Virus record (IMG/VR): IMGVR_UViG_3300025789_000018
DNA length: 64,000 nt
Source: a virus
Lineage: Duplodnaviria > Caudoviricetes
Direction: 5' to 3' (one strand)
Part shown: positions 1,974 to 50,748 of the stretch, piece after piece
How positions within the stretch are numbered: the stretch's first letter is position 1
Layout of the letters: the number at the start of each line of letters is the position of its first letter
The notes under the pieces: model-generated
Told to the model about the DNA's origin: nothing
The model's database searches: none
Seen by the model: only the letters and a program-made list of their open reading frames with translations
Position numbers and translations under genes: made by a program

Positions 1974-4205
1974 TTATGACATCGCTTCCTGTGCGATGAT
2001 GTGAACACCAACGTTTGCTGCGTTAGATCCTGTTGTAATAGCAACAGTCAACTGGTCAGTTAGGTTACCAGCAACAGTGTTATAGAGTGGGAAGAAATAT
2101 GATAGATCGATTTCTTGTAGACCAGAACCACCAGCAGGAGCAGTGAATGCGAACACAACTTCACCACCTGTCATCGCTGTAGCCGAAACGTCTCTCATTG
2201 CAAACGAGTAGTTTGACCCAAGACCGATAGAGTTTACAGTAGCACCATTAGCGAATGTAATACCATTTGCCTGTGTGATTGTACCAGCAGTTGTGTTTGA
2301 TGTTGTGGTGTTTGCTAGTGTGTAGAACTGCGCACCAGTCAATAGAATAGGGCTTGAAGTTGTTGACGTAATCAACTCAACAATACACTGAGCATCGGCT
2401 GATAGATACATCTTCTTTGGTAGTAGCTGACCACGATTGATTAGACCAATCTGGAAAGGAGTACCAGTCATGGATGCAGTATTTGCAATAGGTGCACCAG
2501 TGATAATATTGCCATATGTAATGACTGTTGAGTTACTTGAAGTGATACGTCCAGTTAACCCTGTGTTACTTGTTCCTTGTGCAGGAAAGTAAATGTGGCG
2601 ACCAGTAAATGTATTGTTAGTATACGTGTTGACTTGTGCACCTGTTTGTGTTACAGTAGCAGGAGCAGATAGTGTATATGCTGTTGTGTTCACAAAAGAT
2701 GTAACTGTAGTAGCAGGAATGCCCGTTAAGTTTGACGTAACTGTTTGCCCAACATAAACGTTTGCTGTACTACCAGAAGTGATAACAACAATATTATTAC
2801 CAGAAGTATAGTTACCGATCAATGATGATGTTTGAACACCATCAAATGAGGTATTTGCTGTTGTAAAATAAAGTGTTGAGTTTGTGCTTGTCGAGTTGAT
2901 AGCATTAAATGTTGAGTTACCACTCATTTCGATAGTTGCCATTGGGCGACTTGCCATAGTAAGAACAGGATAACGAGCAGTAGATCCAGAAATCGTTCTC
3001 TTAGGTGCAGTGTTTGCCATACCATATGGATATGTAAAGCCGCGTTGGTCATCTTGTCCGCCTTCAATAACAACAGAAACACCATAGTGAAACATATCGT
3101 TCTGTGAAGCAGTTACGCCAATATTGCGCTGTTCATAACGAACTGGAAGGTTACCAGTACGTGACCATGGGCTTTCTTGTGCTGGAATAACAATATTTCC
3201 AGTTTGTGGATTTGTCGTATTGATCGGACCTTTATTGCCGAAACCGATGTAATGTAGAACAATCCATTCACCATTGATGACTACACCCCAGCGTACCATA
3301 CCAGCCCCGTACCAAGTATATTCTTGCCAGATCATCTGAATACGTGACCAATCAAGAGAGTTGATTGTAGCTTGATCACCATTCCATGCTGGAAGAGGAA
3401 CGCGATAGTCTGTTGGAACACCTGCGTTGGTGCCGTGATTTACTACACCTGCTTGATTGACATCTGAGCGAACGACACAAAACATACCAAATGGATTGGC
3501 TTGTGTTGTGAACTGATAGCTGGTACCAGTTGTCGTTGAAGTTGTTGGTGAACTGATAGCAACTGCGGTACTATTGATGATATTTTGCACAACTGTTGTA
3601 TATGGAATGTTTAATGTTCCATTAGTATCTTTAACAGTAACACTTGGATTGATGTTTGGTCCAGTTACTGGCATACCAATGTACATAGTAGCAGTGCTTG
3701 ACAAACCAGTAATAAGATTTGAGTTTGCTGTACTGTTACCGGTAAATGCCGTAATAGAGTTTGCATACACAGGATCACCTTGTTCCAGGAACACACCATT
3801 GCCATCATCGAAGAAACCTACGCGCTGGCGCTGATTTGTCTGTGCTGCACCAAAGTTCATAGCAGTTGACATGATCATAGTCTTGCCTGGCTGATAACGA
3901 TGATATGGGCGTGTCTGGCGAATAGTTACATCACCACTTGCTGTGCCGAGACGCATACGAACACCACCAGAACCTGGTAGTTGCTGAATAGAAGAGTTGC
4001 CTGAAGGACTAATAACATAGTTTTCCCAGCGCATTGGCTGCGCGCCATATTCAAAGTCTGCTTCGTAAATATTCTGGTGACGCGAAGTGCGAACGCGCCC
4101 TAGATTGTCCATCGAACCAAAAGTTGGTTTAGACGAGATACCTACTGGCTGAATTACAGAGTTGTTTGCTGGTGTTTTAAATGTCATGAAAATCTCCTGG
4201 TACAC
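1974..4205 (-). CDS. Large putative virion structural protein with two copies of the 65-aa N/T/S-rich module
   Basis: DNLGRVRTS..RVGFFDDGNGVFLE..WYGAGMVRWG core resembles a conserved large-myovirus structural family. Has its own late promoter and lies downstream of gp23. Confidence 0.55.
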   Translation of the reverse strand: MYQEIFMTFKTPANNSVIQPVGISSKPTFGSMDNLGRVRTSRHQNIYEADFEYGAQPMRWENYVISPSGNSSIQQLPGSGGVRMRLGTASGDVTIRQTRPYHRYQPGKTMIMSTAMNFGAAQTNQRQRVGFFDDGNGVFLEQGDPVYANSITAFTGNSTANSNLITGLSSTATMYIGMPVTGPNINPSVTVKDTNGTLNIPYTTVVQNIINSTAVAISSPTTSTTTGTSYQFTTQANPFGMFCVVRSDVNQAGVVNHGTNAGVPTDYRVPLPAWNGDQATINSLDWSRIQMIWQEYTWYGAGMVRWGVVINGEWIVLHYIGFGNKGPINTTNPQTGNIVIPAQESPWSRTGNLPVRYEQRNIGVTASQNDMFHYGVSVVIEGGQDDQRGFTYPYGMANTAPKRTISGSTARYPVLTMASRPMATIEMSGNSTFNAINSTSTNSTLYFTTANTSFDGVQTSSLIGNYTSGNNIVVITSGSTANVYVGQTVTSNLTGIPATTVTSFVNTTAYTLSAPATVTQTGAQVNTYTNNTFTGRHIYFPAQGTSNTGLTGRITSSNSTVITYGNIITGAPIANTASMTGTPFQIGLINRGQLLPKKMYLSADAQCIVELITSTTSSPILLTGAQFYTLANTTTSNTTAGTITQANGITFANGATVNSIGLGSNYSFAMRDVSATAMTGGEVVFAFTAPAGGSGLQEIDLSYFFPLYNTVAGNLTDQLTVAITTGSNAANVGVHIIAQEAMS

Positions 4206-4225
4206 GCATAAGTCATTTGATACTG

Positions 4226-4233
4226 TATTTATA
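4226..4233 (-). promoter_or_regulatory. T4-type late promoter TATAAATA
   Basis: Exact consensus, intergenic upstream of 1974..4205. Confidence 0.8.
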
Positions 4234-4251
4234 TCAACAGATCATTAGACA

Positions 4252-4285
4252 TAAAGAAAGGGGGAGAACCTTTCGATTCTCCCCC
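4252..4285 (-). terminator. Intrinsic terminator after gp23/homing endonuclease
   Basis: GGGGGAGAA/TTCTCCCCC stem followed on the minus strand by TTTCTTTAT. Confidence 0.8.
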
Positions 4286-4319
4286 GAAGGTTTGTAATAT
4301 ATTTTATGTTATAGATTAC

Positions 4320-4913: not shown

Positions 4914-4917
4914 ACAA

Positions 4918-4986: not shown

Positions 4987-4998
4987 TAAAGTGTATTT

Positions 4999-12008: not shown

Positions 12009-14315
12009 TTAAAACTGTCCAACGATTTCAGAGAAATCAACACCTGACCTTACGGCGACGAAGTTCAACTGGATATAGTTGATTGATCGTGCTGGTTTAA
12101 TATAAATGTCGCCAACGAACTGATTTGCATTGATGACAGCAGGAGTATTGTTCGTAGAATCGCATACTACCTTAAAGTCTTGAATGCCTTGTAGCCCTTG
12201 AACTTGCTTCAAGAAAGGAGTGACAAGCGAAACAAACTGTGCTTGCGTGAATGAGTTGTTGAACTCAAATAGCAAGTTCTGTGCGGCTTGTGATATTGTC
12301 TTTTCAAGAATAATGAATAGACGACGGACGTTGATACGATCAAAGGCAGATGGATTTGATAGTGTTTTATCACCATTCAAGATTGTGCCCTGACCTGGGA
12401 ATGTCACAACTGGATTGACGCCTAGTGGATATAGAATATCGCGATCTGCTTTAGTTGGATTATAAGAAAGTTTAACGATATTCTTGATCTGGCCACGATT
12501 GAAACCAGCAGGTGACCACCATGGATCGCGAACATTATCGGTAAATACGCATAGACCAGCGATGTCTCCATTTAGTGGAACATAACGATATACGTCATTG
12601 TACTTGTCGTACTGATATTTGTAGCCAGAATCCATGACACCATATGAAGATGCTGTTAAGCCAGCACGGAAGTTTTGAACAGAAGCAAGTTCATTACCTA
12701 CGTTGTTGACAACTGATGAAGCATTTGGTGAAATGAACACAACGCAGTCCATACGTGGCTGAGCAATGTTCTGGATTAGATAGTTGCCAAGTAGCGTTCT
12801 ATTTGTTTCGTCTGATTTCCCGGTCATTAGAAGAGAAATCGAAGCGCGTTCGGTTGACTTATAAAGATCATAAGCGGCAGTGATTGCACCGATGTTTGAT
12901 CCAACATTGCTTTCTGAGAAGCCATCTTGACCGCCAGCAAAAGCGATAGTTGTAGGAACAACATCAGTTAGTGTTGTCATATTGGCTGAAGTATTGGCAT
13001 ATGAAGCAGTTGGCAGGTTTGTTACCCAAACATAGTTTGAGTTTTGATTTAAAACATTTAGATAGTAGCTAGTTGCGCCGTCAACGGTTTTCGCATCAGT
13101 TGCGCGTGATAGCCCCTGAAATACTTCTAGGATTTGCCCTGGAACACCAGTAAACTTGCCTAGTGTATCTGCGACAACAACGTGAATGCTATCGACAGCA
13201 GCACTATTGCCATAGTTCTGACCGTAGTAAGAAACCGCTGGTGCGCCAGTTACAGAACTGTAATACTGCCATAGACGACCAACATTGCCTGATGCAACAT
13301 ATGGAGTTGATAGTGTGTATGGAGTATAGAATGAAACGTTTAGGAACTCTTGTGCAGCCTTGAATGTTGCTGAACCGGTTGATCCTGTGAATGCGCTTGA
13401 TAGAACAACTGATGTTGAACTTGGAACTGAAACAATAGTTGTGTTGTTAGCAAGACCAGCAATAGAAGCACTTACAGAGAAACCAATGAGAGCATTTGAC
13501 ATTCCACTTAGGCCAGTAACAGTATTTGACGAAGCGGTAAAAGTTGCGCCAGCATTGATGACTAATGAAGGAGCAGTGCCTTTTGATGCAACTTGTAGTG
13601 TCTGTGTACCAATTGATGAGTTGCCAGCAGTAATCCAATCGCCAACAGTCAATGCTTGATATGCGGCATATGATGCTAGGTTAGCAGCAACAGTAGCAGC
13701 ATTGATGATTACTGAAGTATCGTTGAATGATAATACAGCAGTATTTGAGTTGAAAGCGAATGTGGTATTTGAGATATTCACCAAGTTTGATGAATATGCG
13801 TTAGCAGTATCAACCGTTGAGATTGTAAGGCTGCTACCGATTGCACCTGGATACTTTGCAGTATAGAGATATGTTGGATTTGAAGAAAACTGACCATTGT
13901 TTGCAGCAGTATTATATGCTGTCTGGTTTGTGATATTGAAGTTTGCGTTAACGTTCGAACCCCAATATGTATTACCAGCAACGTTAGCAACAATAGCGCC
14001 ACTTGTATCAGCGATAGCACTAAATGTACCATAACCGTCAGTTGTAGTATCTGTTGTGTTAGCAGCGCGACTTACGTATAGTGAGTTACCATAAGCAAGG
14101 AAGTTTGCGGCTGTGAAAAATGTTTCGGCATTAAGATTGGTTGGTTTACCGAATCTTTTCCACAAAGTTACTTCAGAATTTACTAGAACTAACTGACCGA
14201 TTGGTCCCCAGCGGAATACACCAGCAATAGCGCCAGTTGTAGTCGAAACGGTAGGTACTGTTGTGGTTGCATCGTATTCGGTTACGCTTACACCTGGACT
14301 GACTTGAATTGCCAT
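12009..14315 (-). CDS. gp18: Tail sheath protein with N/T/S-rich insertion domains
   Basis: SPGVSVTE.D, YDKYNDVYRYVPLNGDIAGLC, WWSPAGFNRGQI, FDRINVRRLF, DIYIKPARSINYIQLNFVAVRSGV.F.E. Confidence 0.99.
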   Translation of the reverse strand: MAIQVSPGVSVTEYDATTTVPTVSTTTGAIAGVFRWGPIGQLVLVNSEVTLWKRFGKPTNLNAETFFTAANFLAYGNSLYVSRAANTTDTTTDGYGTFSAIADTSGAIVANVAGNTYWGSNVNANFNITNQTAYNTAANNGQFSSNPTYLYTAKYPGAIGSSLTISTVDTANAYSSNLVNISNTTFAFNSNTAVLSFNDTSVIINAATVAANLASYAAYQALTVGDWITAGNSSIGTQTLQVASKGTAPSLVINAGATFTASSNTVTGLSGMSNALIGFSVSASIAGLANNTTIVSVPSSTSVVLSSAFTGSTGSATFKAAQEFLNVSFYTPYTLSTPYVASGNVGRLWQYYSSVTGAPAVSYYGQNYGNSAAVDSIHVVVADTLGKFTGVPGQILEVFQGLSRATDAKTVDGATSYYLNVLNQNSNYVWVTNLPTASYANTSANMTTLTDVVPTTIAFAGGQDGFSESNVGSNIGAITAAYDLYKSTERASISLLMTGKSDETNRTLLGNYLIQNIAQPRMDCVVFISPNASSVVNNVGNELASVQNFRAGLTASSYGVMDSGYKYQYDKYNDVYRYVPLNGDIAGLCVFTDNVRDPWWSPAGFNRGQIKNIVKLSYNPTKADRDILYPLGVNPVVTFPGQGTILNGDKTLSNPSAFDRINVRRLFIILEKTISQAAQNLLFEFNNSFTQAQFVSLVTPFLKQVQGLQGIQDFKVVCDSTNNTPAVINANQFVGDIYIKPARSINYIQLNFVAVRSGVDFSEIVGQF

Positions 14316-17450: not shown

Positions 17451-18464
17451 TCACCCGATGTTTGTAAACCAATCGTAAATGAAGCCATAGTTGCTGTTAG
17501 CTTCAATCTGAGACAGTGGAATAGAAATAGATGCATTGCTTGTTGGATTGCCATTTGCATCAAGACCAGGAGTAATCTGTACATATTCTGCAATAAGAGA
17601 GTTGCCAGAAGTTGTAAAGGTTACGTTAGAGTTTAAACCAGTATATATGTTGCTAAGTGAAACCGATGTCGTATTTACCGCGGTTACTGTTGTATTTGCT
17701 GGCAATCCTTGAACGTTTGCTGTAATCCTAGAACCAACATCGATAGCATCAATATCGGCATTTGTAAAGATTGTGTTACTGCCGTTACTGATTGTGCCAA
17801 CAAAAGTATCACTATCACCAGATACACGGAAGTTGATATCAACAGTATTGATGACGCCCTGTGTTGAGATTGGACCAAAGATATAGCCTTTGAGAACGAA
17901 CTGAAGTTCCCAAATGATAGCATAGCGGTCATTGAAACTGGCTTCGTAAGTATCTTCATACTGAATGTTTTTTAAAACAACAGGAATATCCATCACAATA
18001 CCCATTTCTGGAATGAGATTGATCGCTGTTGTCCACTCTGGCTTGAAGAATGGCAAAATCTGTTCTACAATGCGACAAGCATCATCGGCGTTTCTAGCAA
18101 GAATCGATAGATCGATGTTAAAGTTGTACGGAACAGGATTGTACTGATACCCGAGTGTGTTGCCCATATTTGTTAGATTGACATTCTTGCCAACCGTGTT
18201 TAACTTACGCGATGAATCGTATTCAACACTTTTGATTTCAAAAGACATTCTAGGTAGAACCTGATTGACCTGGCGTAGCAAGTCTGGGTTCTCTTGAAGT
18301 CGAACGAGATAACGATCTTTTGGACCATATGATAGTGGCACTTTCAGCGTATCAACAGCATCTCCTGCTTCATTGACGCGATCAATGAGAATGTCATTGA
18401 ACAACGAACCAAACAGAACAATATACTTTCTGATACTGCCAAAATAAAAGTTGTTGCCAAACAT
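17451..18464 (-). CDS. gp15: Tail sheath stabiliser/completion protein with C-terminal 65-aa module insertion
   Basis: FY.GSIRKYIVLFGSLFNDI, KVPLSYGPK, LPRMSFEI....YD..RK, PVPYN, EQILPFFKP. Confidence 0.95.
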   Translation of the reverse strand: MFGNNFYFGSIRKYIVLFGSLFNDILIDRVNEAGDAVDTLKVPLSYGPKDRYLVRLQENPDLLRQVNQVLPRMSFEIKSVEYDSSRKLNTVGKNVNLTNMGNTLGYQYNPVPYNFNIDLSILARNADDACRIVEQILPFFKPEWTTAINLIPEMGIVMDIPVVLKNIQYEDTYEASFNDRYAIIWELQFVLKGYIFGPISTQGVINTVDINFRVSGDSDTFVGTISNGSNTIFTNADIDAIDVGSRITANVQGLPANTTVTAVNTTSVSLSNIYTGLNSNVTFTTSGNSLIAEYVQITPGLDANGNPTSNASISIPLSQIEANSNYGFIYDWFTNIG

Positions 18465-22482: not shown

Positions 22483-22483
22483 A

Positions 22484-28903: not shown

Positions 28904-31900
28904 TTAGAATGTCCCGCCGTCGATACCTCCGAATGCTGGGATATTATTTAGAATCTGTAGAACAGTGCCGTTAGCACCAGCAGATGCTAGGCCAACTGGT
29001 CCAGAGCCGTTACCATAGAGAACAGCAGCAGAAGTTAGTGTCAGTAGACCAGTACCACCAGAACCTGCTCCAAGAGCAGTGGCAAGCGATAGTGTGTTAG
29101 CAGTGATGTTGACATTGACAGTCGAATTCGCTGTGATCGTAACACCAGACTGAGTTGATGTGACACCAAGGAATGACAATGGCATTGGTGACTGAGTAGC
29201 ACCAATCGTCGCACCAAATGGCGTTGTGTTCGCTGGATATGATGGGTTAGAAATCTGATTGTTTGAAACAAATAGTGAGAAGCTATTTGAAGATGCAACA
29301 CGAGCCAAGCCATAGAATGCTGTATAATAAGCATTCGCAGTACCAACAGAACTTGTACCAGAAGCAACCTGAGACATAATCAAGTTGGTCGAGTTGACCA
29401 CAGTAACAAATGTGTTCGCAGGAATGTTTGTACCAGTGATCAACTCACCGACATAGAAGCCAGCAGTTGTTGTCATCTGTACGTTAGCAGAGTTTAATGT
29501 TGTATTCGCTGTAATGTTGGTTGCAGACTGAATAGGCGCACTTGAAATGAATCCAGTGTCTATTACGTCGGCTGTGGTATTATATGCTATACCTGATGGT
29601 GAAACATAGTTAGGGCTATTTTCATCAGCAAGACCAATGATATTGTCATTGACGTTTAGATTGGTAGTATTGATTGAAGCAAGTGTGCCTTGGACATATA
29701 AGTTGCCAGAAATAATGGCATTCTGTACGCTAAGATTTGCTGATGTAGCTGAAACGTTACCGCCAGTAAACTGAAGAACTGAACTATTAACGTTGAAACC
29801 GTATGATGTTGCAACTGATGTTGTATTGATTGTTGTATTGCCAAGAGTGTTAGCAATCGCAATGTTTGTTGGACCTGTGACTGTTGAGTTACCAGAAACA
29901 TAGCCAGCAGTAGATACGTTTGTCGTTGGAGTAACAGCAGAACCAACCGAAGAGTGTATATTGGCTTGGACAACACCAGAAGTGTTGGCAACGAACACAC
30001 CAGAAGTATTAGCAATAACGTTAGATGATGCTATATTAGCTGATGTCGTAACGTATAATGTTGCTGTATTGATTTGATTTGTGACGTTTAGATATGAACC
30101 AACAGTAAGTGATGATCCAAAGTTAACGGCACCAGAGATGTTTGCAGTACCAGTGACGGCAAGTGTAGCATTAGGTGCAGTATTGCCAATACCAACGTTG
30201 CCGCTGTTTGTGATACGCATTCTTTCATTGGAAGCCAACTGACCACCAGTAAAGAAGTTGATGTAGTTTGTGCCACCACCTAGAGATGCAACACCGATCG
30301 ACAAGTTTGTATTAGCAGAATATAGATAAGCATCTGATGGCTGGCTGATCGTCCAAGAAGAGTTCGACCAGTTGACACCGACCATACCAAAGTCAGCGAA
30401 GTTATTGCCAGAAGGTCCATTACTATCAAAGACAATAAAGTCTGTCGATGACTGTGTGCCTGTGTTGGCATTCCACATAACCATTTCGACATAGCTGTTT
30501 TGATTACCAGCAAACTCTGCGATAGATGAATCACCAGCATTAAAGCCAATAACAACATTCATATAACTGTTGCCAGTAGCTAATACAGAAGTATTGGCGA
30601 GAGATCCACCACTTGATGTGCCGTATGAACCAGCTTTAAGTGCAAATGCGTTAACAACACCTGTAGCATTTGCGACAAACACACCAGAGGTATTTGCGAT
30701 TACGTTAGATGATGCGATATTGGCTGATGTAGTGACAAAAAGTGTTGCGGTATTTGTTTGACCAGTAATATTAACGGCAGCAGCATTAACTAGTGTAGAG
30801 TTAGCAGTAAATGTGGCACCAGTCTGTACTGTAGTCGCATTTACTGTGCCAGTGGTCCAAACGCCTGTTGCATTAAGCTGTACGGCTGATGCGATATTAG
30901 CTGATGTTGTTGCATAGATCGTAGCAGCATTCACCTGACCAGATACGTTGATGTATGGACCAGAGAAACCAGTAGTTGCATAGATCGTACCAGCATTTAC
31001 TGTAGCAGTATTGACTGATGAACCCTGAACAACTGTTGAGCCTATTGCCAATGTTGTCGATGATAGGTTAGCAATAGATGCACCACCCGTACCACTGATT
31101 ACCTGAACAAAAGTAGAACCAGTGTTTGATTGTACAACAATATTAGCACTTGATGTGATTGAACTGTTGCCGATTGCAAGACTTGCTGATGTTAAGTTTG
31201 CAACAGATGACGAGTTCTGAATGGTAAACTGTGGCGCACCAGAGATTGTGTTATTACCGTAAGAAACAGAAGTTGTACTGTTTGTTGTGATTGTAAAAGA
31301 TGGTGCAGTTGATGTATTACCAGCAACAGAAATCGATGTTGTGTTGATCTGTACGTTACCAACGTTGGCATATACACCAATAGAAACGTTAGAACTAAAA
31401 GTAATAGTGTTCTGGAATGTCTGAGTATTTGACCAGTTCCAGTTGTTTGCAGCGATCTGGGCACCAGTTAGACCAGCAGAAGCAGCAGCCCAGTAAGGAG
31501 CGCCTGTGGCACCATTTGTTGTTAGAACATAACCAGCAGTACCAGTTGAACCGTTAGCATTTAATGGAATACCAGAAATAGTGACCTGAGTTGTATTTGC
31601 AACAAAAGTCGCACCATTTGTGCTGAGTGAGTTTGCTTGGACTGTGTTGGCCGCAATCGCAGTTACAGAACTATTACCACCAGAGAATGTGATGCTGTTT
31701 CCAGAGAACGTCTGGTTATTTGTCCATGTATATGCAAAGCTAGTGTTAGCACCGCCAGAAGCGATCTTACCAGAGACATATGTGATAATAGCTTGTGATG
31801 TTACAAGTTCTGAACCAGAACCGCCACCAGATGCATTTGCACCAAGTATTGATGATGATGTTGAGTTAGAAATAGAAGTGATTAGAACGTTTGATGGAGT

Positions 31901-32188
31901 CAAAGCAGATGTTGTGATCATCAACCCTGAAGTCAGTGTATTTGAAATGAATGAGTTGGCGTCAACGACTACCGTAGCATTAGCGGCAAGAGTACCAGGC
32001 GTAACTACGTTATTGACATATCCGTATTTGGTACCACCAATGAGCAAAGCAGTTGTACCAACGCCAGTCTGAGCGCCGATGAAGAATCCGTTTGATGAAT
32101 ACGAATAAGCAAGTTCACCGCCATTCAACGTAGTAGTTGGTGTAGCTGATGTGTTACTACGTCTGATTTGAACGATTGTATTTGACAT
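28904..32188 (-). CDS. Tail-fibre protein (1094 aa)
   Basis: N-terminal IVQIRRS..ATPT..LNGGELAYS, ERMRITNSGNVGIGNTAP repeat, LNVNDNIIGL domain, C-terminal IDGGTF. Confidence 0.75.
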   Translation of the reverse strand: MSNTIVQIRRSNTSATPTTTLNGGELAYSYSSNGFFIGAQTGVGTTALLIGGTKYGYVNNVVTPGTLAANATVVVDANSFISNTLTSGLMITTSALTPSNVLITSISNSTSSSILGANASGGGSGSELVTSQAIITYVSGKIASGGANTSFAYTWTNNQTFSGNSITFSGGNSSVTAIAANTVQANSLSTNGATFVANTTQVTISGIPLNANGSTGTAGYVLTTNGATGAPYWAAASAGLTGAQIAANNWNWSNTQTFQNTITFSSNVSIGVYANVGNVQINTTSISVAGNTSTAPSFTITTNSTTSVSYGNNTISGAPQFTIQNSSSVANLTSASLAIGNSSITSSANIVVQSNTGSTFVQVISGTGGASIANLSSTTLAIGSTVVQGSSVNTATVNAGTIYATTGFSGPYINVSGQVNAATIYATTSANIASAVQLNATGVWTTGTVNATTVQTGATFTANSTLVNAAAVNITGQTNTATLFVTTSANIASSNVIANTSGVFVANATGVVNAFALKAGSYGTSSGGSLANTSVLATGNSYMNVVIGFNAGDSSIAEFAGNQNSYVEMVMWNANTGTQSSTDFIVFDSNGPSGNNFADFGMVGVNWSNSSWTISQPSDAYLYSANTNLSIGVASLGGGTNYINFFTGGQLASNERMRITNSGNVGIGNTAPNATLAVTGTANISGAVNFGSSLTVGSYLNVTNQINTATLYVTTSANIASSNVIANTSGVFVANTSGVVQANIHSSVGSAVTPTTNVSTAGYVSGNSTVTGPTNIAIANTLGNTTINTTSVATSYGFNVNSSVLQFTGGNVSATSANLSVQNAIISGNLYVQGTLASINTTNLNVNDNIIGLADENSPNYVSPSGIAYNTTADVIDTGFISSAPIQSATNITANTTLNSANVQMTTTAGFYVGELITGTNIPANTFVTVVNSTNLIMSQVASGTSSVGTANAYYTAFYGLARVASSNSFSLFVSNNQISNPSYPANTTPFGATIGATQSPMPLSFLGVTSTQSGVTITANSTVNVNITANTLSLATALGAGSGGTGLLTLTSAAVLYGNGSGPVGLASAGANGTVLQILNNIPAFGGIDGGTF

Positions 32189-34186: not shown

Positions 34187-34397
34187 CTTTATTTGCTACC
34201 AAAAGTTTGAGAAGATTTTTTATTTCATTAACATCATTTGAAAGATCATCGATACGCTTATTTGTTTTTTCATTTTCAAGTAAACGATTGCGTTCTGTCA
34301 AATGCTGATTTAACTCGCCAATGTTTTTATTTATGATAGCACCCGTTCGTGAATCTCTGCATAGTCCAGGCACATTGGTCTGAATAAGAGTTTGCAT
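34167..34397 (-). CDS. Conserved small T4-like protein following the DUF4815 cluster
   Basis: GL.RD..TGAIIN.N and L..DVNEIK.LLKLL pattern. Confidence 0.55.
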   Translation of the reverse strand: MQTLIQTNVPGLCRDSRTGAIINKNIGELNQHLTERNRLLENEKTNKRIDDLSNDVNEIKNLLKLLVANKDVNSNS

Positions 34398-36691
34398 TAT
34401 GAACTTGTACCGATAGCAGTTAGACTTGCAACACGAGGTGTTACCGAAGTGCTATTTGAAACCAATACAAGCTTGACTTGTAAAGTATCATATCCATCAA
34501 CAGGTGTTAACGAAGTATTGTAATATCTTGCAATATTCTGATTTTGTGGATTATTAAATGTCTGTGATGGATCATTGATCAGATCGATATAATAACCAGG
34601 TTGACCGAGAATACTTGTGTTTGATACTGCGGTGTCAAGGGTTAGCACAGTATTACTGGTAACAGAAGTTACGGCAGCAATAACGTAGTTTGATGGAATA
34701 AGTGGATTCCAAATCTTGACAACACTATTGACTGGGATTTCAGTACCAAAGTTAGTATTAGCGCCAGTCACTACCGCGTTTGCTGTAGCTGAGAATGCAA
34801 CACCAACAGTCACAGAACCATTTGCTGTGTATGCGCTTGGTGGAAATGCAGGAAGACCCCAACTCTGAGCAATATAGTTGTTGGTTACTGGTGAACTGAC
34901 AGCATTAGATGATGCGTTTGCTGGATACAGAAGCGTCCATTCTTTTGCATTAAATCCATCTGAATCGTGTGAGTTGTAAATCTTTGCATAAGGCTGAACA
35001 TATGTGCCAGCGGGAATATAAGAAATCGTTTGTACAACAAGATCCTGTGCAGGATAAGTCGAATCAAAGTTGATCTTGGTTGTGATGTGTCTAGACGCGG
35101 CTAAGCCAGAAGCAGGAGCAGTTTCACCAACTAGTGTATTGTTGATTGTCACCGCGCTAGAATAAACGTCTAGACCCTCTGAGGTAACAACAGGGCTGCT
35201 ATAGATAGAACCGCTAGTGTTTTGAGCGAGAGTGATGTTCAATACACCAGATTTATTTCTCACGCCGTAGAGCGTGTTAGTAGCTGCCACAACTTCATGT
35301 GATCTTGATGCCACAACAGCGTTATAACCAGAAACTGTATTGTTTGCGTAGTTTACGGCTGCTTGCACTGGAGTTAGTGCATATGTGTTCGAACTTGAAT
35401 ATGCAAACTGAGAACTTAATGCATATGTTGCGCTTTGTGGAGTATTGATAACGATTTCTGGCTGAAACGATCCAACAGGAAAGTTAACAATAGATGAAAT
35501 GTATGCAGTAGATCCCGTGAACTCACCAACAACAGGCGTCAATGAATATACCTGAGCAGTACCAGTTGTGCCTGTAAATGAAGTTGAGACATTGATCGCT
35601 GAAGTATTGATGATAGCCGAGATTGTTGTTCCCGTAGTAATACCAGCAACGTTTGCGGTGATTGGCTGACCAACAAATAGATTTGTCGTTGATGACAATC
35701 CAGTATATTGGTTATTGCCATTTGTCAAAGTAGCAGTAAAGTATGTTCCTCTATTAAAGAGGTAGTTTGAGTTTGATGCCGTCGAGTTGGACAGATACAA
35801 AACGTTAGCTGATTGGTTGTTATAATAAGACACACCAATAGGAGCAGTAAAGAAACTTGCTGAAGTGTTTGTGCTTGGAAAAGCCTGATCGACAGTCATT
35901 GTTGTATTATTGGCAATCGCAACAACATTACGGACTAGATAAGTGTTCGCGCTTGTATACACGATAAGCTGAGTATTAGTCGCGAATGTGCTTTGGAATG
36001 ATGTTCCTGTTCCGATTACCGTATTGCTACCTGAACTGAATGCAACTGTACCAGTAAGATTTGCGACTAGAGGAAAAACTCTTTCGCCACCCAAGAATGA
36101 ACCTGTTTGATTTGTGATAACAAAAAACTCATAATCACCATTGACAAGTTGATATGTCGCGTTATTTGAACTAAACTGTGCAACACTAACACCATACTTC
36201 AACTGTGCATTATTGACAGGAGTAATGTTGCCACTATTGCCGTAATCAAATAGTTGCCCTGGTGTACCGCCAGCGAAGCCAGTAAACCCTGTGTTCTGTG
36301 CAGCGCCTACAATATCATTGCCTACTTGTGCAGTCCAAAGAATATATGCAGGGTCATCTGCTTGAACGTTGATAGCATATGTTTTTCCAGTATTTAACTG
36401 GAGTGGAGCAGGAAACGTAAAAGTTGTTTTAGTTGCTGATGTTGCATCTACGTTAATAGATGCATATGGAAGATTTGCAACCGAACCACTGAGAACAGAG
36501 TTGAATAGTGGAGCACCATTAGAATCTGTAGGCGAAACGCTGATCGTTACTGTTGGATTATTAATCCCAGATGCATTGTTTGTAGCACTAGGTTTTGCCT
36601 GAAAATACAAATCAACGCTTGTCAGAAATACCGTAGCACTCTGATTGACTGAGTTTGGATCCAAATAAAATGTTTGCGAGTTGATATACAT
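34397..36691 (-). CDS. Baseplate/virion structural protein (C-terminal DUF4815/VrlC-like region)
   Basis: SQTFY....VFLTSVDLYFQAKP start and FD.LQVKLVL.SNS...TPRV..L.AI-like end. Confidence 0.7.
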   Translation of the reverse strand: MYINSQTFYLDPNSVNQSATVFLTSVDLYFQAKPSATNNASGINNPTVTISVSPTDSNGAPLFNSVLSGSVANLPYASINVDATSATKTTFTFPAPLQLNTGKTYAINVQADDPAYILWTAQVGNDIVGAAQNTGFTGFAGGTPGQLFDYGNSGNITPVNNAQLKYGVSVAQFSSNNATYQLVNGDYEFFVITNQTGSFLGGERVFPLVANLTGTVAFSSGSNTVIGTGTSFQSTFATNTQLIVYTSANTYLVRNVVAIANNTTMTVDQAFPSTNTSASFFTAPIGVSYYNNQSANVLYLSNSTASNSNYLFNRGTYFTATLTNGNNQYTGLSSTTNLFVGQPITANVAGITTGTTISAIINTSAINVSTSFTGTTGTAQVYSLTPVVGEFTGSTAYISSIVNFPVGSFQPEIVINTPQSATYALSSQFAYSSSNTYALTPVQAAVNYANNTVSGYNAVVASRSHEVVAATNTLYGVRNKSGVLNITLAQNTSGSIYSSPVVTSEGLDVYSSAVTINNTLVGETAPASGLAASRHITTKINFDSTYPAQDLVVQTISYIPAGTYVQPYAKIYNSHDSDGFNAKEWTLLYPANASSNAVSSPVTNNYIAQSWGLPAFPPSAYTANGSVTVGVAFSATANAVVTGANTNFGTEIPVNSVVKIWNPLIPSNYVIAAVTSVTSNTVLTLDTAVSNTSILGQPGYYIDLINDPSQTFNNPQNQNIARYYNTSLTPVDGYDTLQVKLVLVSNSTSVTPRVASLTAIGTSS

Positions 36692-37260: not shown

Positions 37261-40200
37261 TTATGTTCCTACTGCTTGTGCTGATGACCACAAGATTGTG
37301 CCGTTTGGATTATATATTACCAATGCACCACCAGCAGCAACTGGAATAGTATTTGTGATTGACATAATGATAGTATGCTGACCAGCGGAAACTGAATGTG
37401 ATGCGGTTTGTATAGTGTTATACGAAACGCCTGATATCAGAACAGTTGAGTCGAGTGTAACGCTGCCCGTATCATCTGCCGCAAACTGGAATGAATATGT
37501 ACCAGTTGTCGGGAAGTTCACAACAGTTTGAAAAACATTTGTTATAATATCATAACCAGAACCGATCCAGATTGCATATGAACGCAAGAATGAACTCCAG
37601 CCACCTAGATCCATACCACTTGCACTACACAAGTACCAACCAGTTGATGGATATCCTAGTGAAGAATATGTCGTGCCTAGTGTTGATTGTACGTTTGTTA
37701 GAATGGTAAATGTTGCTGGTGATACTGACATTGTACCTGTATATGTCACTGGTGGTGGAACATATGCAGTAGAGTTAGTTGCAACCAACTGTTGAAATAG
37801 TGGCACAGAACTATACGGAAGCGTCAATAGTGAACCAGTAACACCGGATTGTGTGTCATCGGCAGTATCAAAGTTAAAGCCTACATTGTAAGAAGATACA
37901 GTTGCAACTACTTCGTTGTTAACAATCATTGTTGTGTTCTGTGGATTGTTCACATCGGTGTAGTTGTTGCTCTGAAAAGTATCAGCGAAGAAGCCATACT
38001 TGAAGCGATTGATAGCACCATTGATTGATGATGGAATCGCTAGACCGCTTACGCTCTGTTCTAGTGCAGATAGACTTGCTTGCTGTTCTAGTGCAGCAAT
38101 ACGATTCGCAAGGCTATTGATATCAGACATAGTATAAACAAGTGGCTGACTGATTTGTGTATTTGTTGTAGAAGATGTTGGCACAGAAATCGTGTGATTT
38201 GCAACACGAGCAAATGAATAGATTTCGTTAGCAACATGCTTATCAATAATATTTGTATAGTTCTGATCTAGCTTCTGTGGTACAGAAGGATATGGTGGAA
38301 CGAATACCAGATTGATTGTCATCGTATTCGCTGGTTCAGCAGGTGGTACCAACTTAGTTGAACCAGGTGTGCCAGGAATAGAAACGATATTTGCATTTGT
38401 ATCAACTACCAGACGATCAACGCGCCCCTGATAGTTCACAAGGTTTGCAGAGTGTGCGGTACCTGGTGTTGGGAACTGATACGAAGTGCTAAGTGGTTCT
38501 GTACCGAACTTGACAACTTCACCACTGAAGATTAGATTTGCTGAACCACTTGAGGTAGCGGCTGAAGAAATATTAATCGCAGTAGAGTTGACAATAGACA
38601 CAACAGTTGCATCAACTGGAATGCCAAAGTTGGTTGCGAATACTGAAGTACCGACGGTGATTACAGATGTATTTGAGATAGCATTGACTGTTACGTTGCC
38701 GCTTGTCAATGTACCAGTTAGAATCTGTGTAGTCAATGCACCGTAGTCGATAGGATTGATTGTTGACTTGGCAGTATTAGCTACTGTAATACTAGCAGTA
38801 TTTGCAATACTTGGACGGAAGTCAACATAATCGATTAGATCGTAGTAGTTGCCCTGACTGTCATACATCTCAGAGATTTCAAGAGTGTTGATATAACCAC
38901 TTGAAGTTGCTGTAATGTTTGCATATGGTTGAGCATCATTTACTGGATATGAACTACGTGTATAGAAGCCACCACCAGTTTCGGTGAAGTGATCAAACTG
39001 TACTACCAATGCATCTGTTGTATTGATTGCAAGCTGTGACGTTGGAGTTAAATGTAGATACCCCATATCATAGAAGTCTGGATTTTGTTTGTGATCAACA
39101 TAGAAGTTTGTTGTGACATCAATCCAAGTTGAAGGAATAGATGCAGAGTTTGCTACGTTTGCTGTAACAACTGTGCTACCAGAAATAACACTTGAAGCAG
39201 GTGCTTTATAGACTTTCTTCATACGGAAGATGTCTGGGAAGCCTAGTGCCCATGGACCAGTATTTGAGTTGACAGCATTTGCAACGTTGATTGCTACAGT
39301 GGTATCGCGATTTGGTGTCTTTTGTGTGACTGACTGGCCAGTGGCATATACTGGTGTAACAATAGATACGTTTGATGATGTGGTGTTAATCGCTGCTCCA
39401 AGGTTGATGGAGAGTTTTGAACCATTCGCTGATACTGTGACTGAACCAGTAGGCAAAGCCACTGGTACGTTCTTTGGATAGAACACCACAACGTTTGCAG
39501 AAGTGTTTGCATTTGCTGGGAATGTATCAACAGTGATTGCACCACCACTAGCATTAGCGGTTGCAACTCTCTTGATTTCTCCACCAGTATTTGAGTAGAT
39601 TTTGAGATATTCGCCAGCATAAAGTGATGATGTAGATCCAGCATTTACCGTAACGATTGTGTTAGATGTGCTGGTAATCAAAGTCAATGAACTTACGTTA
39701 GCATTTGCCTGTGCATTCGAACCAGTGAACACTAGACTTAGTTCTAGCATCTGATTGTTTGATAGTGTTGCACCATTACCGTATGGGAAGATTTCTCCAG
39801 CACCAAGCTGAAGCGTGATAACACCCGAAGCAGCGTTAACAGCAACGTTAGATGTTCCTGTTGAGAACAAGCCTTGATAGTTGAACGAGTGGTTCGCAGT
39901 GCTTAAAACGTTATTTGCGCCAACTGGGAATAGCATTGTCGAGTTGGTGGCTGATGAAAGAATCGCAACGTTCGTTGAACTTATTGTTGGATTGCTTACG
40001 AGAACAATATCAGCAATACCCTGGTTGATACCATTGTTATAATAAACAGATTGTGCGTTTAGAAAGTTCTTGCCAGGATATAGATCGATATCATAAAGAT
40101 ATAGCGAAGCAACATAGCTTGGGCTGCCTGGTGTTCCAGACTGTGGCACTAGCGAACGAATACGCGCTGTACCGATTGCGTTACCAACTGGTGTTGTATT

Positions 40201-42012
40201 ACCTGATGAATAAGCAGCATTGTTTGAAAGGAATGTCTTTGCAGTATCGTATAGTGTTACGTAGTCACCAGTATTGAATGCAAACATACCACCAATCTGT
40301 TGAATATTGATGTAGTTGCCATAGTTCAATGTGGTGAATAGTGCGTTCGATGTTACAGTATTTGTGCCTTGGTTGGCTTGTAGAAAGAAGCTTGAATACG
40401 TCTGGACTTTATAACCAGAAATGTATGCTTCGCCTGGATCAACAACAAGATTGAATGTCTGTGATTGTGAAGTTGAGTTCGTTGAACTGTCTAGTGCAGT
40501 TACAGTTGAAGCAAATGTAAATGGATCAACCAAGAAGTTGCCATTTGTGTCAAACGATCTAGATGCAATATTGTCACCAATGGCGCTGTAGATTGTTTGC
40601 TGATTCTGTAGATATGGCTGACCATTCGAGAATGCAGTGATTGGGAAGAATAGTGTGTTCGCTGAAGCAGAAGCCGCATTGATGACAACGAGTGTTGGTG
40701 TTAACTGAAGACGATCAGCACCAGGTGCAGCGAAGTTTGGTTGACCTGTTGCATTATCAAGCAGAGTTTCATCAATATTACTATTGATGATTGTTTCGGA
40801 TGTATTAAATCCAACAACAACTTGGTCAGGATATTGACTGTAGCTTGATACCACAACAGATTGTGGTGCAACGTTAACGAAGTACCCTTTCTGATAGATC
40901 ACGCCACCAGAGACGGAGAACGCATATCCAAAGCCAACTGGTCCAGTGCTACCAGATGTTGCAGTGTTTGCAACAGTAACCTGCACGGCATAGTTCTGTG
41001 CAGTAAGAAGCGATGTGTTGCCTGCGATCTGCGCGACAGTAGCATTACCATTTGCAGTCTTGACTGTAACATAAGGAGGAATGACATATCCATTACCTTG
41101 AGTTACCATCGAAGCAGAAAGGATTTGACCTGTAGCCGAAGTAGATACAACAGCATTTGCACCAGAACCAATAATACCAGTAATCGTGGCAGAAGGATCA
41201 ACTGTTACTGATGAGTTACCAATCTTAATCGCTGCACTATTTGCGAATGTCCATGCACTTGCAGTTACAGAAGTATTTGAGATATCGTATGATGAACTGT
41301 TTGAGAATGGTGCAAGATTGAGGACAATCGTATTTACAATCGCAGTTGTATTTACGCCAACAACAGTTGCGCGAACTGTACCTGGATAAGTTCCTGTGTA
41401 AACAGTATTACCAACAAGTGCTTGACCACTACCAAGTGATGCTGAGTTCTGTACGGCAATAGCTGACAAGAACACAACAGAATCTGAGTTAGAAATACCA
41501 GCAGCGACACCACCAACAGGAACATTGACCGCGAAGATCGAAACGTTTGCGTCTGTGAGTGTTAGAATATCATTCTGCAAATATGCAGTCTGGTTGTTAT
41601 TTGCACCAGAGTTCGTATAGTTGACAAACAACGTATTAAGAAATGGTGCTTGTGATAGATAACCAGTATTTGAACCGACGATATATGACGTTAGATTAGT
41701 CGAAGAACTGGTGGCGAATAAACCAACATAGTTATTAACTAAAGCTTTTCCGCCGGCGACAGTAAGGTCATTGATCTTTACATAAGGATAACTGGTAAAG
41801 TATTGGAAGTTACATCCCTTGACGATAGTACCTCTATCAAAGATGTTGTCACCAAACTGTTCAATCTGATTCTGAACAATACTCTGAAGAACGTTAAGTT
41901 CACGAGTTTGTACCGCCACACTTGGCTTGAATAGAACCTGATAATAGTTCTGTTCGTTTGCGACATAATCGTCAAAATATGGTGATACGGAAAGATCAGT
42001 ATTGATTGGCAT
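37261..42012 (-). CDS. DUF4815-family large baseplate-associated protein with C-terminal PA14-like domain
   Basis: DLSVSPYFDDY..Y.VLFKP..AVQ.RELN.LQSI.QNQIE.FG, NFAAPGADRLQL, RFKYGFFAD.F, GTYSFQFAADD. Confidence 0.85.
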   Translation of the reverse strand: MPINTDLSVSPYFDDYVANEQNYYQVLFKPSVAVQTRELNVLQSIVQNQIEQFGDNIFDRGTIVKGCNFQYFTSYPYVKINDLTVAGGKALVNNYVGLFATSSSTNLTSYIVGSNTGYLSQAPFLNTLFVNYTNSGANNNQTAYLQNDILTLTDANVSIFAVNVPVGGVAAGISNSDSVVFLSAIAVQNSASLGSGQALVGNTVYTGTYPGTVRATVVGVNTTAIVNTIVLNLAPFSNSSSYDISNTSVTASAWTFANSAAIKIGNSSVTVDPSATITGIIGSGANAVVSTSATGQILSASMVTQGNGYVIPPYVTVKTANGNATVAQIAGNTSLLTAQNYAVQVTVANTATSGSTGPVGFGYAFSVSGGVIYQKGYFVNVAPQSVVVSSYSQYPDQVVVGFNTSETIINSNIDETLLDNATGQPNFAAPGADRLQLTPTLVVINAASASANTLFFPITAFSNGQPYLQNQQTIYSAIGDNIASRSFDTNGNFLVDPFTFASTVTALDSSTNSTSQSQTFNLVVDPGEAYISGYKVQTYSSFFLQANQGTNTVTSNALFTTLNYGNYINIQQIGGMFAFNTGDYVTLYDTAKTFLSNNAAYSSGNTTPVGNAIGTARIRSLVPQSGTPGSPSYVASLYLYDIDLYPGKNFLNAQSVYYNNGINQGIADIVLVSNPTISSTNVAILSSATNSTMLFPVGANNVLSTANHSFNYQGLFSTGTSNVAVNAASGVITLQLGAGEIFPYGNGATLSNNQMLELSLVFTGSNAQANANVSSLTLITSTSNTIVTVNAGSTSSLYAGEYLKIYSNTGGEIKRVATANASGGAITVDTFPANANTSANVVVFYPKNVPVALPTGSVTVSANGSKLSINLGAAINTTSSNVSIVTPVYATGQSVTQKTPNRDTTVAINVANAVNSNTGPWALGFPDIFRMKKVYKAPASSVISGSTVVTANVANSASIPSTWIDVTTNFYVDHKQNPDFYDMGYLHLTPTSQLAINTTDALVVQFDHFTETGGGFYTRSSYPVNDAQPYANITATSSGYINTLEISEMYDSQGNYYDLIDYVDFRPSIANTASITVANTAKSTINPIDYGALTTQILTGTLTSGNVTVNAISNTSVITVGTSVFATNFGIPVDATVVSIVNSTAINISSAATSSGSANLIFSGEVVKFGTEPLSTSYQFPTPGTAHSANLVNYQGRVDRLVVDTNANIVSIPGTPGSTKLVPPAEPANTMTINLVFVPPYPSVPQKLDQNYTNIIDKHVANEIYSFARVANHTISVPTSSTTNTQISQPLVYTMSDINSLANRIAALEQQASLSALEQSVSGLAIPSSINGAINRFKYGFFADTFQSNNYTDVNNPQNTTMIVNNEVVATVSSYNVGFNFDTADDTQSGVTGSLLTLPYSSVPLFQQLVATNSTAYVPPPVTYTGTMSVSPATFTILTNVQSTLGTTYSSLGYPSTGWYLCSASGMDLGGWSSFLRSYAIWIGSGYDIITNVFQTVVNFPTTGTYSFQFAADDTGSVTLDSTVLISGVSYNTIQTASHSVSAGQHTIIMSITNTIPVAAGGALVIYNPNGTILWSSAQAVGT

Positions 42013-47062: not shown

Positions 47063-47063
47063 C

Positions 47064-48851: not shown

Positions 48852-48854
48852 GGT

Positions 48855-49286
48855 TTACCTAATGCGATAAAGGATTGTAGAAAGCGTAACAGGTTTATTT
48901 ATGTTTACAATATAGAATGTGATAGTGATCGCATATGCATTTTGCTCTTCATATGGAGTAGCAATAACAGAGATTAATTTTGCTCTTGGTTCATGGTTTG
49001 CGATAATGTTTTCTATTTCAATCTGAATACCACTTTGAGTGATAGAACTAATAGGTTCGAACAAATAGTTGCGCAAGTTTCCTCCTATATCTGGTTGAAA
49101 CGGGCGGTCATATTTGTTTGTTAAAATAAGATTTAGAATCGACTGACTTACCGCGTCTTCGTTCTTTTTTATGACAAGATCATGCAATTCTGGATGCACC
49201 ACAAAGTTGTCGAACAGATCGCTATAAAGAAGCGACTGTGAGGCTGTAGGTGTGAACTTGTCTTGGTTAAACGATGACTGTGCCAT
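48855..49286 (-). CDS. gp25: Baseplate wedge subunit
   Basis: YSDL...F..HP..DL...KNEDAV.QSI.NLILT...DRPFQP..G..LR..LFEP, EPRA.L..V. Confidence 0.95.
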   Translation of the reverse strand: MAQSSFNQDKFTPTASQSLLYSDLFDNFVVHPELHDLVIKKNEDAVSQSILNLILTNKYDRPFQPDIGGNLRNYLFEPISSITQSGIQIEIENIIANHEPRAKLISVIATPYEEQNAYAITITFYIVNINKPVTLSTILYRIR

Positions 49287-49287
49287 A

Positions 49288-50748
49288 TTATGTTCCTGCT
49301 ACGGGAATTGGTATTTGATTGAATGTAATACTTGCACTTGTATTTGATGATGTAGCATTATTAGACATAATAATAGCATTTACAATATAGTTTAAAGTAA
49401 TCGTGTTTGGTGTTGTTCCTAAATAAGGAGCAGAAACAGTAACTAGATTGTTATATACGTTCGTAACTGTACAACCATTAGCAAATGCGGGATCAGTTGA
49501 TGTCAATGCCAAACCAATCACAACATTACTATCTATAGGCGACATCGTTAAGACAGAGGACTGTGATGTACTGATAGTTGCAGAGAATGAACCAGGCGTA
49601 TTACTTATAGACACTGCTGTTGTATTTGCTGGAATAGATCCATCGGCTGCAACCAACACTTGACCGATTGATACGGCCGTGTTTACATCATAGTGTATAA
49701 TCTGATTATTGCCAGAAGTCACGGTGCCAGTAAATGGAGAAGATGTTATTGTCACGTTTGATACGTAATTTTGCAAAAACTCTGCGTGTGTGTTTCCAAT
49801 AGCAACCGCGCTAGTTAAGAAGTTCGCAGTGTTTGAAGTGTCGTATATAGGATATCCATTTGAGCCAGATGATCCTAATAAAGTTGTGACTTGTTGTTGC
49901 ATCTGGCTTACTCTTTGTAGAGCAGGAGCAGCGGCAGATGAAACTGTTGATTGTATGCCATTAACAACACTTAATGCAGCAGTACCTGTTGTAATATCAA
50001 CTGCTTTTGATACTGCATTGATTTGACTGACAAGTGTATTTGTCACAATATTATTATTGCCTAAAGCACCTGTAACTGCGCTAATAGCAGCATTTTGCAA
50101 CTGAGATACCGCCGTATCAATGTTATTTATAACTGTATTGATTGGTTTAGTTACGGCAGATATTGCTTGATTTTCTAGATTTAGAATCTCGTTCTGTAGT
50201 TGATGTAAAGTCTGAATAGCACATGCTTCAAGTCTAGGCGCTGCCGCCTCAACGGCAACTACTAGTTTTTCTACTGCAATTCCAAGTTTGACAATAGCAA
50301 GTGTATACTTGATCTGTGCTTCAAGTTGTGGTGATATTGGACCAAGTATCAATTTTCCCAACCATGTAACAATAGATACAGGATTAGGTGAAGGTAAACT
50401 AGAAATGGGAAGATATTGCTTTACAATATCCAGTTCATGTTGTATTGCTTTTTTAGCTTTTGATTCAATGCCTGCCAGATTACGCTTTACAATCTTCTGT
50501 AAGTTATCACAATTCGTTGTATATTGAATCTGTGCAGTGAGTTTGTTGATATGTTCAATATTAACATCGATGTCTTGAATGTCACTATTGATCTTGGCAA
50601 TCTGTAAAGAAGTCTGCACAGATGCAGTAATCAAGTCAATTTCGCTTTGACTAAATGGAGGAATATTAATAGCCAAAGGAGCAGTAGCATTTAGTGCTGT
50701 TATCGAATCCGTAAGATTTGATGTAGTTACTGGTGGAGTTGATGCCAT
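49288..50748 (-). CDS. Unknown protein between gp5 and gp25: helical N-part plus nested 65-aa modules
   Basis: Long helical/coiled N-half; C-terminal module copies. Family not recognised. Confidence 0.45.
   Translation of the reverse strand: MASTPPVTTSNLTDSITALNATAPLAINIPPFSQSEIDLITASVQTSLQIAKINSDIQDIDVNIEHINKLTAQIQYTTNCDNLQKIVKRNLAGIESKAKKAIQHELDIVKQYLPISSLPSPNPVSIVTWLGKLILGPISPQLEAQIKYTLAIVKLGIAVEKLVVAVEAAAPRLEACAIQTLHQLQNEILNLENQAISAVTKPINTVINNIDTAVSQLQNAAISAVTGALGNNNIVTNTLVSQINAVSKAVDITTGTAALSVVNGIQSTVSSAAAPALQRVSQMQQQVTTLLGSSGSNGYPIYDTSNTANFLTSAVAIGNTHAEFLQNYVSNVTITSSPFTGTVTSGNNQIIHYDVNTAVSIGQVLVAADGSIPANTTAVSISNTPGSFSATISTSQSSVLTMSPIDSNVVIGLALTSTDPAFANGCTVTNVYNNLVTVSAPYLGTTPNTITLNYIVNAIIMSNNATSSNTSASITFNQIPIPVAGT

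Follow-up and report, generated by a model that had tools for sequence, protein, structure and literature searches.

Gp7, the decoration protein of Arthrobacter phage Bridgette, forms dimers around the pentons on the exterior of the capsid (bioRxiv 10.1101/2022.09.09.507160). FCCH domains, which are six-stranded Greek-key barrels, are fused to the tail tube proteins of siphophages, from which they point outward (PMC13576161, 2026). As for the immunoglobulin (Ig)-like domains of phages, they are common also to bacterial surface proteins, and weak adhesion has been proposed for them (Fraser et al. 2006, as summarised in PMC10385173 and PMC9230969). Here we analysed 64,000 nucleotides of viral DNA (Duplodnaviria; Caudoviricetes; IMG/VR record IMGVR_UViG_3300025789_000018). 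This whole stretch, hereafter called the window, corresponds to the block of structural genes of a T4-like myophage, and its genes are almost all on the minus strand. It encodes a module of about 65 amino acids (aa), which is real and repeated: eight copies with pairwise identities of 20-35% (alignment A1) are found in seven virion genes, all on the minus strand. We are highly confident of the identity and structure of this module, namely that it is a true repeat, that it folds as a six-stranded beta-barrel and that it is a member of a family.

A sequence-only reading of the same DNA had proposed nine copies in seven proteins. The regions concerned do translate to the motif that it described, and open reading frames (ORFs) of the announced sizes are present, all on the minus strand. 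Eight copies in seven proteins stand, and the ninth is weak and degenerate. We scored the copies with profile m2 and with a model made of 439 domain instances from unrelated database proteins, with the orthologues of window proteins left out (below, the unrelated-protein model). The control consisted of 300 same-composition shuffles per copy. The copies are as follows:

3495..3746, minus strand: module copy 1 of the 743-aa protein, residues ~154-237; profile m2 50.0 bits; unrelated-protein model 54.5 bits, shuffles at most 5.5
2613..2822, minus strand: module copy 2 of the 743-aa protein, residues ~462-531; profile m2 49.3 bits; unrelated-protein model 45.5 bits, shuffles at most 5.2
13350..13547, minus strand: module in gp18, residues ~257-322 of 768; profile m2 39.7 bits; unrelated-protein model 42.5 bits, shuffles at most 5.1
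17601..17807, minus strand: module in gp15, residues ~220-288 of 337; profile m2 39.7 bits; unrelated-protein model 41.1 bits, shuffles at most 7.5
29318..29515, minus strand: module in the 1094-aa fibre-like protein, residues ~892-957; profile m2 43.0 bits; unrelated-protein model 45.4 bits, shuffles at most 4.5
35540..35740, minus strand: module in the 764-aa protein, residues ~318-384; profile m2 52.5 bits; unrelated-protein model 56.4 bits, shuffles at most 2.0
38518..38721, minus strand: module in the 1583-aa DUF4815 protein, residues ~1098-1165; profile m2 48.2 bits; unrelated-protein model 51.2 bits, shuffles at most 5.8
49537..49734, minus strand: module in the 486-aa protein, residues ~339-404; profile m2 22.4 bits; unrelated-protein model 22.5 bits, shuffles at most 7.5
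49309..49527, minus strand: degenerate ninth copy, in the 486-aa protein, residues ~408-480; unrelated-protein model 12.3 bits, shuffles at most 5.0

With the unrelated-protein model, the eight copies scored 22.5-56.4 bits and the best shuffle no more than 7.5 bits, and the copies therefore align well above their shuffled controls. An iterative search converged in three rounds on the same eight copies, with 0 matches in a five-fold shuffled decoy set. Leave-one-protein-out models, built from the window copies only, recovered five of the seven proteins at 23-39 bits (at most 8.3 bits for shuffled ORFs) and missed the copies of the 1094-aa and 486-aa proteins. Copy 1 of the 743-aa protein has a loop insertion of ~13 aa inside the module.

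The ninth unit looks like a degenerate copy devoid of a recognisable first hairpin, and its status is marginal. The core VIG...ANG.TVTNV...VSAP is discernible, the first hairpin is not, and hhalign gives a probability of 62% over 30 columns. A second unit is also detected, with an E value of 0.0036, in the orthologue of the 486-aa protein from the divergent relative G002. For the C-terminal 152 residues of the window protein, AlphaFold2 (AF2) yielded a pLDDT of 39.9 from an alignment of 3 rows, too low to be informative on the ninth copy. Elsewhere, three orthologues of the 764-aa protein (P0174, P0175 and P0193) contain, upstream of the main copy, a unit that weakly resembles the module (10-12 bits), at a place that corresponds to residues ~215-281 of the window protein, and the C-terminal part of the 764-aa protein (~620-690) displays a similar pattern, G-S-x-V-T-G...V-G-D-I-V...T-L-T-L. 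There may be further divergent barrels of the same general type beyond the reach of the profile.

The AF2 model of the 764-aa copy, computed from an eight-row alignment, is a beta-barrel of six strands with a pLDDT of 90.8. Among 48,161 representative chains, the sole one at Z>=8 is 8ECI, Gp7 of Bridgette (VIA-align Z 9.2-9.3, root mean square deviation [rmsd] 1.9 Å, 68 of 72 residues, 29% identity), which is also the top Foldseek match (TM 0.67). A search of the PDB sequences with profile A1 (hmmsearch) identified the same protein, 8eci_1 'Decoration protein', with an E value of 6e-5 and 26.1 bits, positions 5-65 of the profile aligning to chain residues 13-73. The module is homologous to the N-terminal barrel of Bridgette Gp7. 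Fold prediction and Foldseek, which had been put forward as a check of the repeat, have thus provided a confident barrel, and its nearest relative of known structure decorates the outside of a capsid.

Weaker structural matches, at Z 5-8, comprise the P22 I-domain, barrels inserted in tailspikes and, at Z 7.9, the outward-facing domain on the tail tube of Mystique (9N71). The FCCH chains of Uba1 and UBA6 are matched at Z 6.2-6.8 (rmsd 2.3-2.7 Å, 9-15% identity), a range of Z compatible with mere small-barrel topology. In the ESM Atlas, the feature match to a viral E1_FCCH cluster amounts to 0.87, under the 0.9 threshold for a lead, and none of the nine copies matches PF16190 (E1_FCCH) in hmmscan at E<=10. 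Similarly, Pfam scans gave no Ig-family match on the module. No gp18 chain figures among the listed structural matches, which does not exclude the fold, and domain I of T4 gp18 was not matched by sequence either. In the predicted-structure libraries, the same barrel (TM 0.8-0.9, rmsd 1.1-1.8 Å) is found in sheath, tube, nozzle, collar and adaptor proteins, as well as in cyanophage 'virion structural' proteins and pectate-lyase-type proteins.

Might the similarity between the copies nevertheless be a by-product of their low-complexity, Thr/Ser/Asn-rich composition rather than denote a homologous domain? The composition bias terms of HMMER are sizeable (16-28 bits), and the two proteins missed by the leave-one-out models fit such an explanation. 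However, it is contradicted by the gap between shuffled and real copies, by the absence of decoy matches, by the existence of a solved homologue and by the clean boundaries of the insertions in gp15 and gp18 described below. The AF2 barrel, the decoy-free iterative search and the shuffle scores refute a composition artefact, which we regard as practically impossible.

The module-bearing genes belong to a recognisable myophage gene set. PHROG and Pfam scans of the window identified gp4 (head closure), gp48, gp53, gp5 and the baseplate wedge proteins gp6, gp7 and gp8, and in addition gp14, gp15, gp18, the portal, the scaffold and the major head protein gp23. The nearest named phages, as judged by gp18, are Stenotrophomonas phage DLP6 (52% identity), Caulobacter phage Cr30 and Sinorhizobium phage phiM12. 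A close IMG/VR record, G001, carries an identical set of modules in identical proteins. The host genes of the module are the following:

1974..4205, minus strand: 743-aa virion structural protein; phrog_1645 'virion structural protein' (5.8e-42); downstream of the gp23 major capsid gene
12009..14315, minus strand: gp18, tail sheath, 768 aa; Pfam Phage_sheath_1 (PF04984), Phage_sheath_1C (PF17482) and Gp18_domIII_N (PF22671); phrog_23
17451..18464, minus strand: gp15, neck, tail sheath stabiliser/terminator, 337 aa; Pfam T4-gp15_tss (PF16724, 1.9e-71), residues 6-216 only
28904..32188, minus strand: 1094-aa fibre-like protein, fibre region; no match in Pfam or PHROG
34397..36691, minus strand: 764-aa protein; phrog_358 and phrog_877, both of unknown function
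37261..42012, minus strand: 1583-aa DUF4815 protein; PF16075 (1.3e-41) and phrog_358 (1.5e-146); directly after baseplate wedge gp8, with gp6/gp7/gp8 as neighbours
49288..50748, minus strand: 486-aa protein; no family match; between gp5 (hub/lysozyme) and gp6 (wedge)

The 743-aa protein is a putative head component, as suggested by its gene position and PHROG category. As for the 764-aa protein, its orthologues in other viral contigs share 45-55% identity with it.

The description of the module as an insertion in otherwise conserved gp15 and gp18 proteins is confirmed by the alignments. Comparison of gp18 with five named relatives (A2) reveals a clean insertion of ~65 residues. The conserved parts of the protein, residues 5-87 and 468-766, align to residues 4-86 and 343-655 of T4-type sheaths, and the insert is therefore located in the region that replaces T4 domains I and II. 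As these domains are solution-exposed in T4 (PMC3004832), the gp18 module sits in a solvent-exposed region, which supports an outward-facing position for this copy. In gp15, the insertion is internal, the module following about residue 216, and a conserved C-terminal segment continues beyond it (A3); among 2099 phage records with a gp15 match, none covers >=80% of the window protein. The cores of both host proteins are intact around the insert, and they match their family HMMs (A2, A3). We found no copy in DLP6, Cr30, phiM12, HTVC008M or RHph_I1_18 with the narrow profile A1, nor in DLP6, Cr30 or Melnitz with the broad profile A7. Since close relatives do without it, the module is dispensable for the core functions of gp15 and gp18. 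For the divergent relatives G002-G004, the gp18 and gp15 genes lie outside the available fragments.

The module is a further example of a known trick, as a member of a widespread, unnamed family of phage surface decoration domains. At E<=1e-3, profile A1 retrieved 1177 representative proteins (clusters) among 1.84 billion proteins. Some of them, secreted bacterial proteins, harbour tandem arrays of up to 13-14 copies, with a median linker of 7 aa. Among 78 carriers that were scanned, we identified Tail Collar (18), Big_13 (5), DUF3383 sheath (4) and Baseplate_J (2) domains, the Big_13 matches falling outside the module, and many carriers match tail-fibre PHROGs. Bacterial carriers are secreted surface proteins, including PEP-CTERM and TAT-signal proteins. 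Profile matches thus place the module well beyond this phage, in gp18 homologues and commonly in tail-collar and tail-fibre proteins. Pfam and NCBIfam scans yielded no model for it, be it in the copies or in the tandem-array proteins, and in PHROGs it is present, with weak matches, only as an embedded part of full-length 'virion structural protein' families or families of unknown function. A tblastn search with one module against 50,697 phage records gave no match, but as the low-complexity filter was on, this result is uninformative.

The sequence-only reading also viewed the module as a mobile domain. This holds in the evolutionary sense, for one autonomous domain has been shuffled into many virion proteins, and orthologues differ as to whether, where and how many times they have it; it does not hold for recent mobility. 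Among 80 other IMG/VR homologues of gp18 (39-50% identity), 14 carry the module at other positions; in ten of them it spans about residues 97-194, in one 280-332. In the divergent relatives G002 and G003, the module is found at the N-terminus of gp8, and there is none in the window gp8. An additional or tandem copy occurs in some orthologues of the 764-aa protein and of the 743-aa protein. With profile A7, five matches were detected in four giant structural ORFs of cyanophage ACG-2014e and one in cyanophage S-BM3; no copy was detected in two IMG/VR relatives that are complete or nearly so. As a rule, copies from the window are not more similar to one another than to instances in unrelated proteins, which were gathered with a profile built from window copies; the exception is the pair formed by gp18 and the 764-aa protein. 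At the nucleotide level, matches between copies are short, with none >47 nt or >30 bits, and the GC content is that of the host genes. The absence of extended nucleotide similarity and the host-like GC content indicate that the copies are old. An intragenomic burst, which we considered as the origin of the set, is rejected, as the copies other than that pair are not mutually closest and share short nucleotide matches.

It is tempting to propose a role for these barrels on the virion. In the explanation that we favour, the module is an autonomously folding, near-uncharged six-stranded beta-barrel of ~65 residues, rich in Thr, Ser, Asn and Gly, that domain shuffling has installed in seven virion proteins of this T4-like lineage. 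It forms a loop insertion in gp18 and in gp15, and it constitutes an internal domain of five large proteins of the baseplate or fibre region. All copies would face outward and might serve as a decoration, not essential to the phage, whose contacts with polysaccharide-rich surfaces such as the host envelope or exopolysaccharides would be weak, multivalent and of the hydrogen-bond type. Such contacts could help adsorption, as proposed for the Ig-like domains of phages and also for extra sheath domains (PMC9230969). As a whole, a shuffled autonomous barrel acting as an outward-facing, non-essential decoration or adhesion module is the best explanation, and we consider its chances to be about even; those of an adhesion role as such, which is argued by analogy, fall slightly short of that. 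Charged residues (D/E/K/R) represent 2.2% of the module and 8.1% of the rest of the host proteins, and S/T/N/Q/G account for 57% of the module.

Several points weigh against this explanation. The conserved columns of the module, Gly, Ile, Pro, Thr, Ser and Ala, look structural, and no conserved aromatic or charged residue marks a sugar-binding site. The outward orientation is proposed by analogy, and for gp15 and the five large proteins it is presumed. The conservation of the module relative to its host is inconsistent, being lower in the 743-aa protein and higher in the 764-aa protein, and there is thus no uniform sign of host-driven diversification. More generally, the function is predicted from analogy.

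Because there is no conserved binding pocket, a role as spacer or cement stays a serious rival. The module would then be an inert structural element, without any ligand of its own, that lengthens or thickens parts of the virion or stabilises its subunits. We deem this unlikely, though by no means negligible. It agrees with the conservation of structural-looking positions only and with the almost uncharged surface. The bacterial tandem arrays with their short linkers resemble stalk domains, the Bridgette Gp7 dimers surround the capsid pentons, and extra sheath domains have been proposed as tail cement (PMC9230969). However, close relatives make working sheaths and necks without the module, domain I of T4 gp18 is a protruding barrel without inter-subunit contacts (PMC3004832), and the family is found preferentially in tail-fibre, collar and tailspike-type proteins.

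The fact that, in a single virion, sheath, neck, one baseplate-region protein and one fibre-like protein all bear the same module also evokes a common docking system, in which one partner, or the fibre-borne modules themselves, would recognise the sheath, neck and baseplate copies and could hold the fibres retracted along the tail. Domain I of T4 gp18 offers a precedent, as a six-stranded barrel that binds the retracted long tail fibres and the baseplate (PMC3004832), and Bridgette Gp7 dimerises. Nevertheless, we found no candidate partner, and the set of carrier proteins differs between related phages. Moreover, copies that are 20-35% identical and have little conserved surface are hard to square with a single shared partner, and we hold docking to be improbable. 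In a broader version, the eight or nine barrels might form one coordinated surface system, either a docking code for fibre retraction and deployment or a uniform, uncharged, hydroxyl-rich tail coat; this idea, too, is speculative and has little chance of being right.

The role of a glycan carrier had been suggested from the N-x-S/T sequons seen in nearly all copies. Every copy does have at least one sequon, and Ser and Thr make up 32-35% of the residues, so that virion glycosylation could in principle occur at the sequons or over the Ser/Thr-rich surface. In addition, contigs with P0193, the 51%-identical orthologue of the 764-aa protein, encode a GT1/GT2 glycosyltransferase and an FkbM-type methyltransferase within the structural block. 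However, the 23 sequons observed compare with 19.9 expected from the composition of the modules, with no single copy being significant. Across the family, N fills each of the two 'sequon' columns in only 18% of members, G (67%) and S (42%) being dominant there, and no glycosyltransferase was found among the scanned window ORFs. The sequons are thus present but no more numerous than composition predicts, and the proposal of a glycan carrier falls; we regard it as very unlikely. In the P0193 contigs (ENA ERZ1426735 and others), the glycosyltransferase has 680 aa, and it and the methyltransferase are encoded on the opposite strand, next to the gene of the 764-aa orthologue; the same structural block includes a collagen-repeat protein. 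Virion glycosylation may merit testing in that lineage.

Other features of the window accompany the module-bearing genes. Directly downstream of the 743-aa protein gene is a gene for a papain-family cysteine protease (Peptidase_C1, 3.3e-14; 1180-1959, minus strand), and this pairing is kept in four metagenomic contigs. The large terminase appears to be split into an N-terminal ATPase part (16129-17010, minus strand, 293 aa) and a C-terminal part (14392-15537, minus strand, 381 aa). An HNH endonuclease ORF (15527-16081, minus strand; PF13392, 6.8e-12) is located between the two and overlaps the start of the second part, and this arrangement could be an intron or a homing-endonuclease insertion. 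Three more homing-endonuclease-like ORFs, all on the minus strand, are present in the structural block, at 4320-4913 (phrog_314), 20813-21430 (SegE-like GIY-YIG and NUMOD3) and 32882-33583 (NUMOD3). Each of two Gly_rich_2 (PF21722) paralogues, at 21844-22557 and 25991-26728 (minus strand), overlaps a large fibre-like ORF without annotation (1151 aa and 666 aa) at that ORF's 3' end, and the proteins may be fibre tip or chaperone pairs. On the plus strand, a 1040-aa protein (58465-61587) has a Peptidase_M15_3 domain at residues 814-900 and is preceded by a T4_baseplate (PF12322) gene (57590-58309); this may be a lysin associated with the virion, or else a tape-measure-like protein. Finally, the gp4 head-closure homologue (55166-56104, minus strand) matches phrog_218 only at residues 174-311, and its N-terminal ~170 residues are an extension without explanation.

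The biology of this module is not categorically new, but its family deserves a name. It is large, with a single homologue of solved structure. Under a named model, many 'hypothetical' tail-fibre, collar and sheath proteins of phages, as well as bacterial surface proteins, would be annotated in part. The lineage described here is an unusually dense case, in which proteins of the sheath, the neck, the baseplate region and the fibre region of one virion have the same accessory domain, and it represents a good system for asking whether such barrels are adhesins, spacers or docking sites. In addition, sheath and terminator proteins of the T4 type accommodate nested barrels at defined sites, a property of use in phage display and engineering.

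How, then, does this module compare with the known systems? With Bridgette Gp7 (8ECI), it has in common sequence homology that includes the core GIPxGTT...S...LS..AT and the same six-stranded barrel, and Gp7 sits on the exterior of its virion. Unlike the window copies, which are internal domains of proteins of 337-1583 aa, Gp7 is a separate, capsid-docking dimer of a 126-aa protein. The window barrel is fused to or inserted in seven tail, neck, baseplate-region and fibre-region proteins, and the function of Gp7 is itself only presumed. The E1 FCCH-like barrels of tail tubes (NBD2 gp39 and MED16 gp13, PMC13576161; Mystique, 9N71) are likewise closed, antiparallel, six-stranded and fused to a virion protein, from which they point outward. 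However, the module does not match PF16190 at E<=10, the identity is 9-16%, and Z scores of 6-8 may reflect mere small-barrel topology. The P22 coat I-domain and the barrels of tailspikes and endosialidases (LKA1 gp49, phi92 gp150, K1F endoNF) are also small barrels inserted in conserved phage proteins (Z 5-7.5), but the likeness is topological only, and they have roles of their own, in capsid stability and sugar binding. As for domain I of T4 gp18 (residues 98-188), the module occupies roughly its position in 10 of the 80 metagenomic gp18 homologues (about 97-194), whereas in the window gp18 it is found further along (257-322), as an extra nested insertion. Lastly, the Ig-like domains of phages (T4 Hoc, Big_2, I-set, FN3) are, like the module, small, promiscuous and non-essential, present on many virion proteins and exchanged between phages. 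They differ in having an Ig beta-sandwich rather than a closed six-stranded barrel, and here a single virion has seven carrier proteins.

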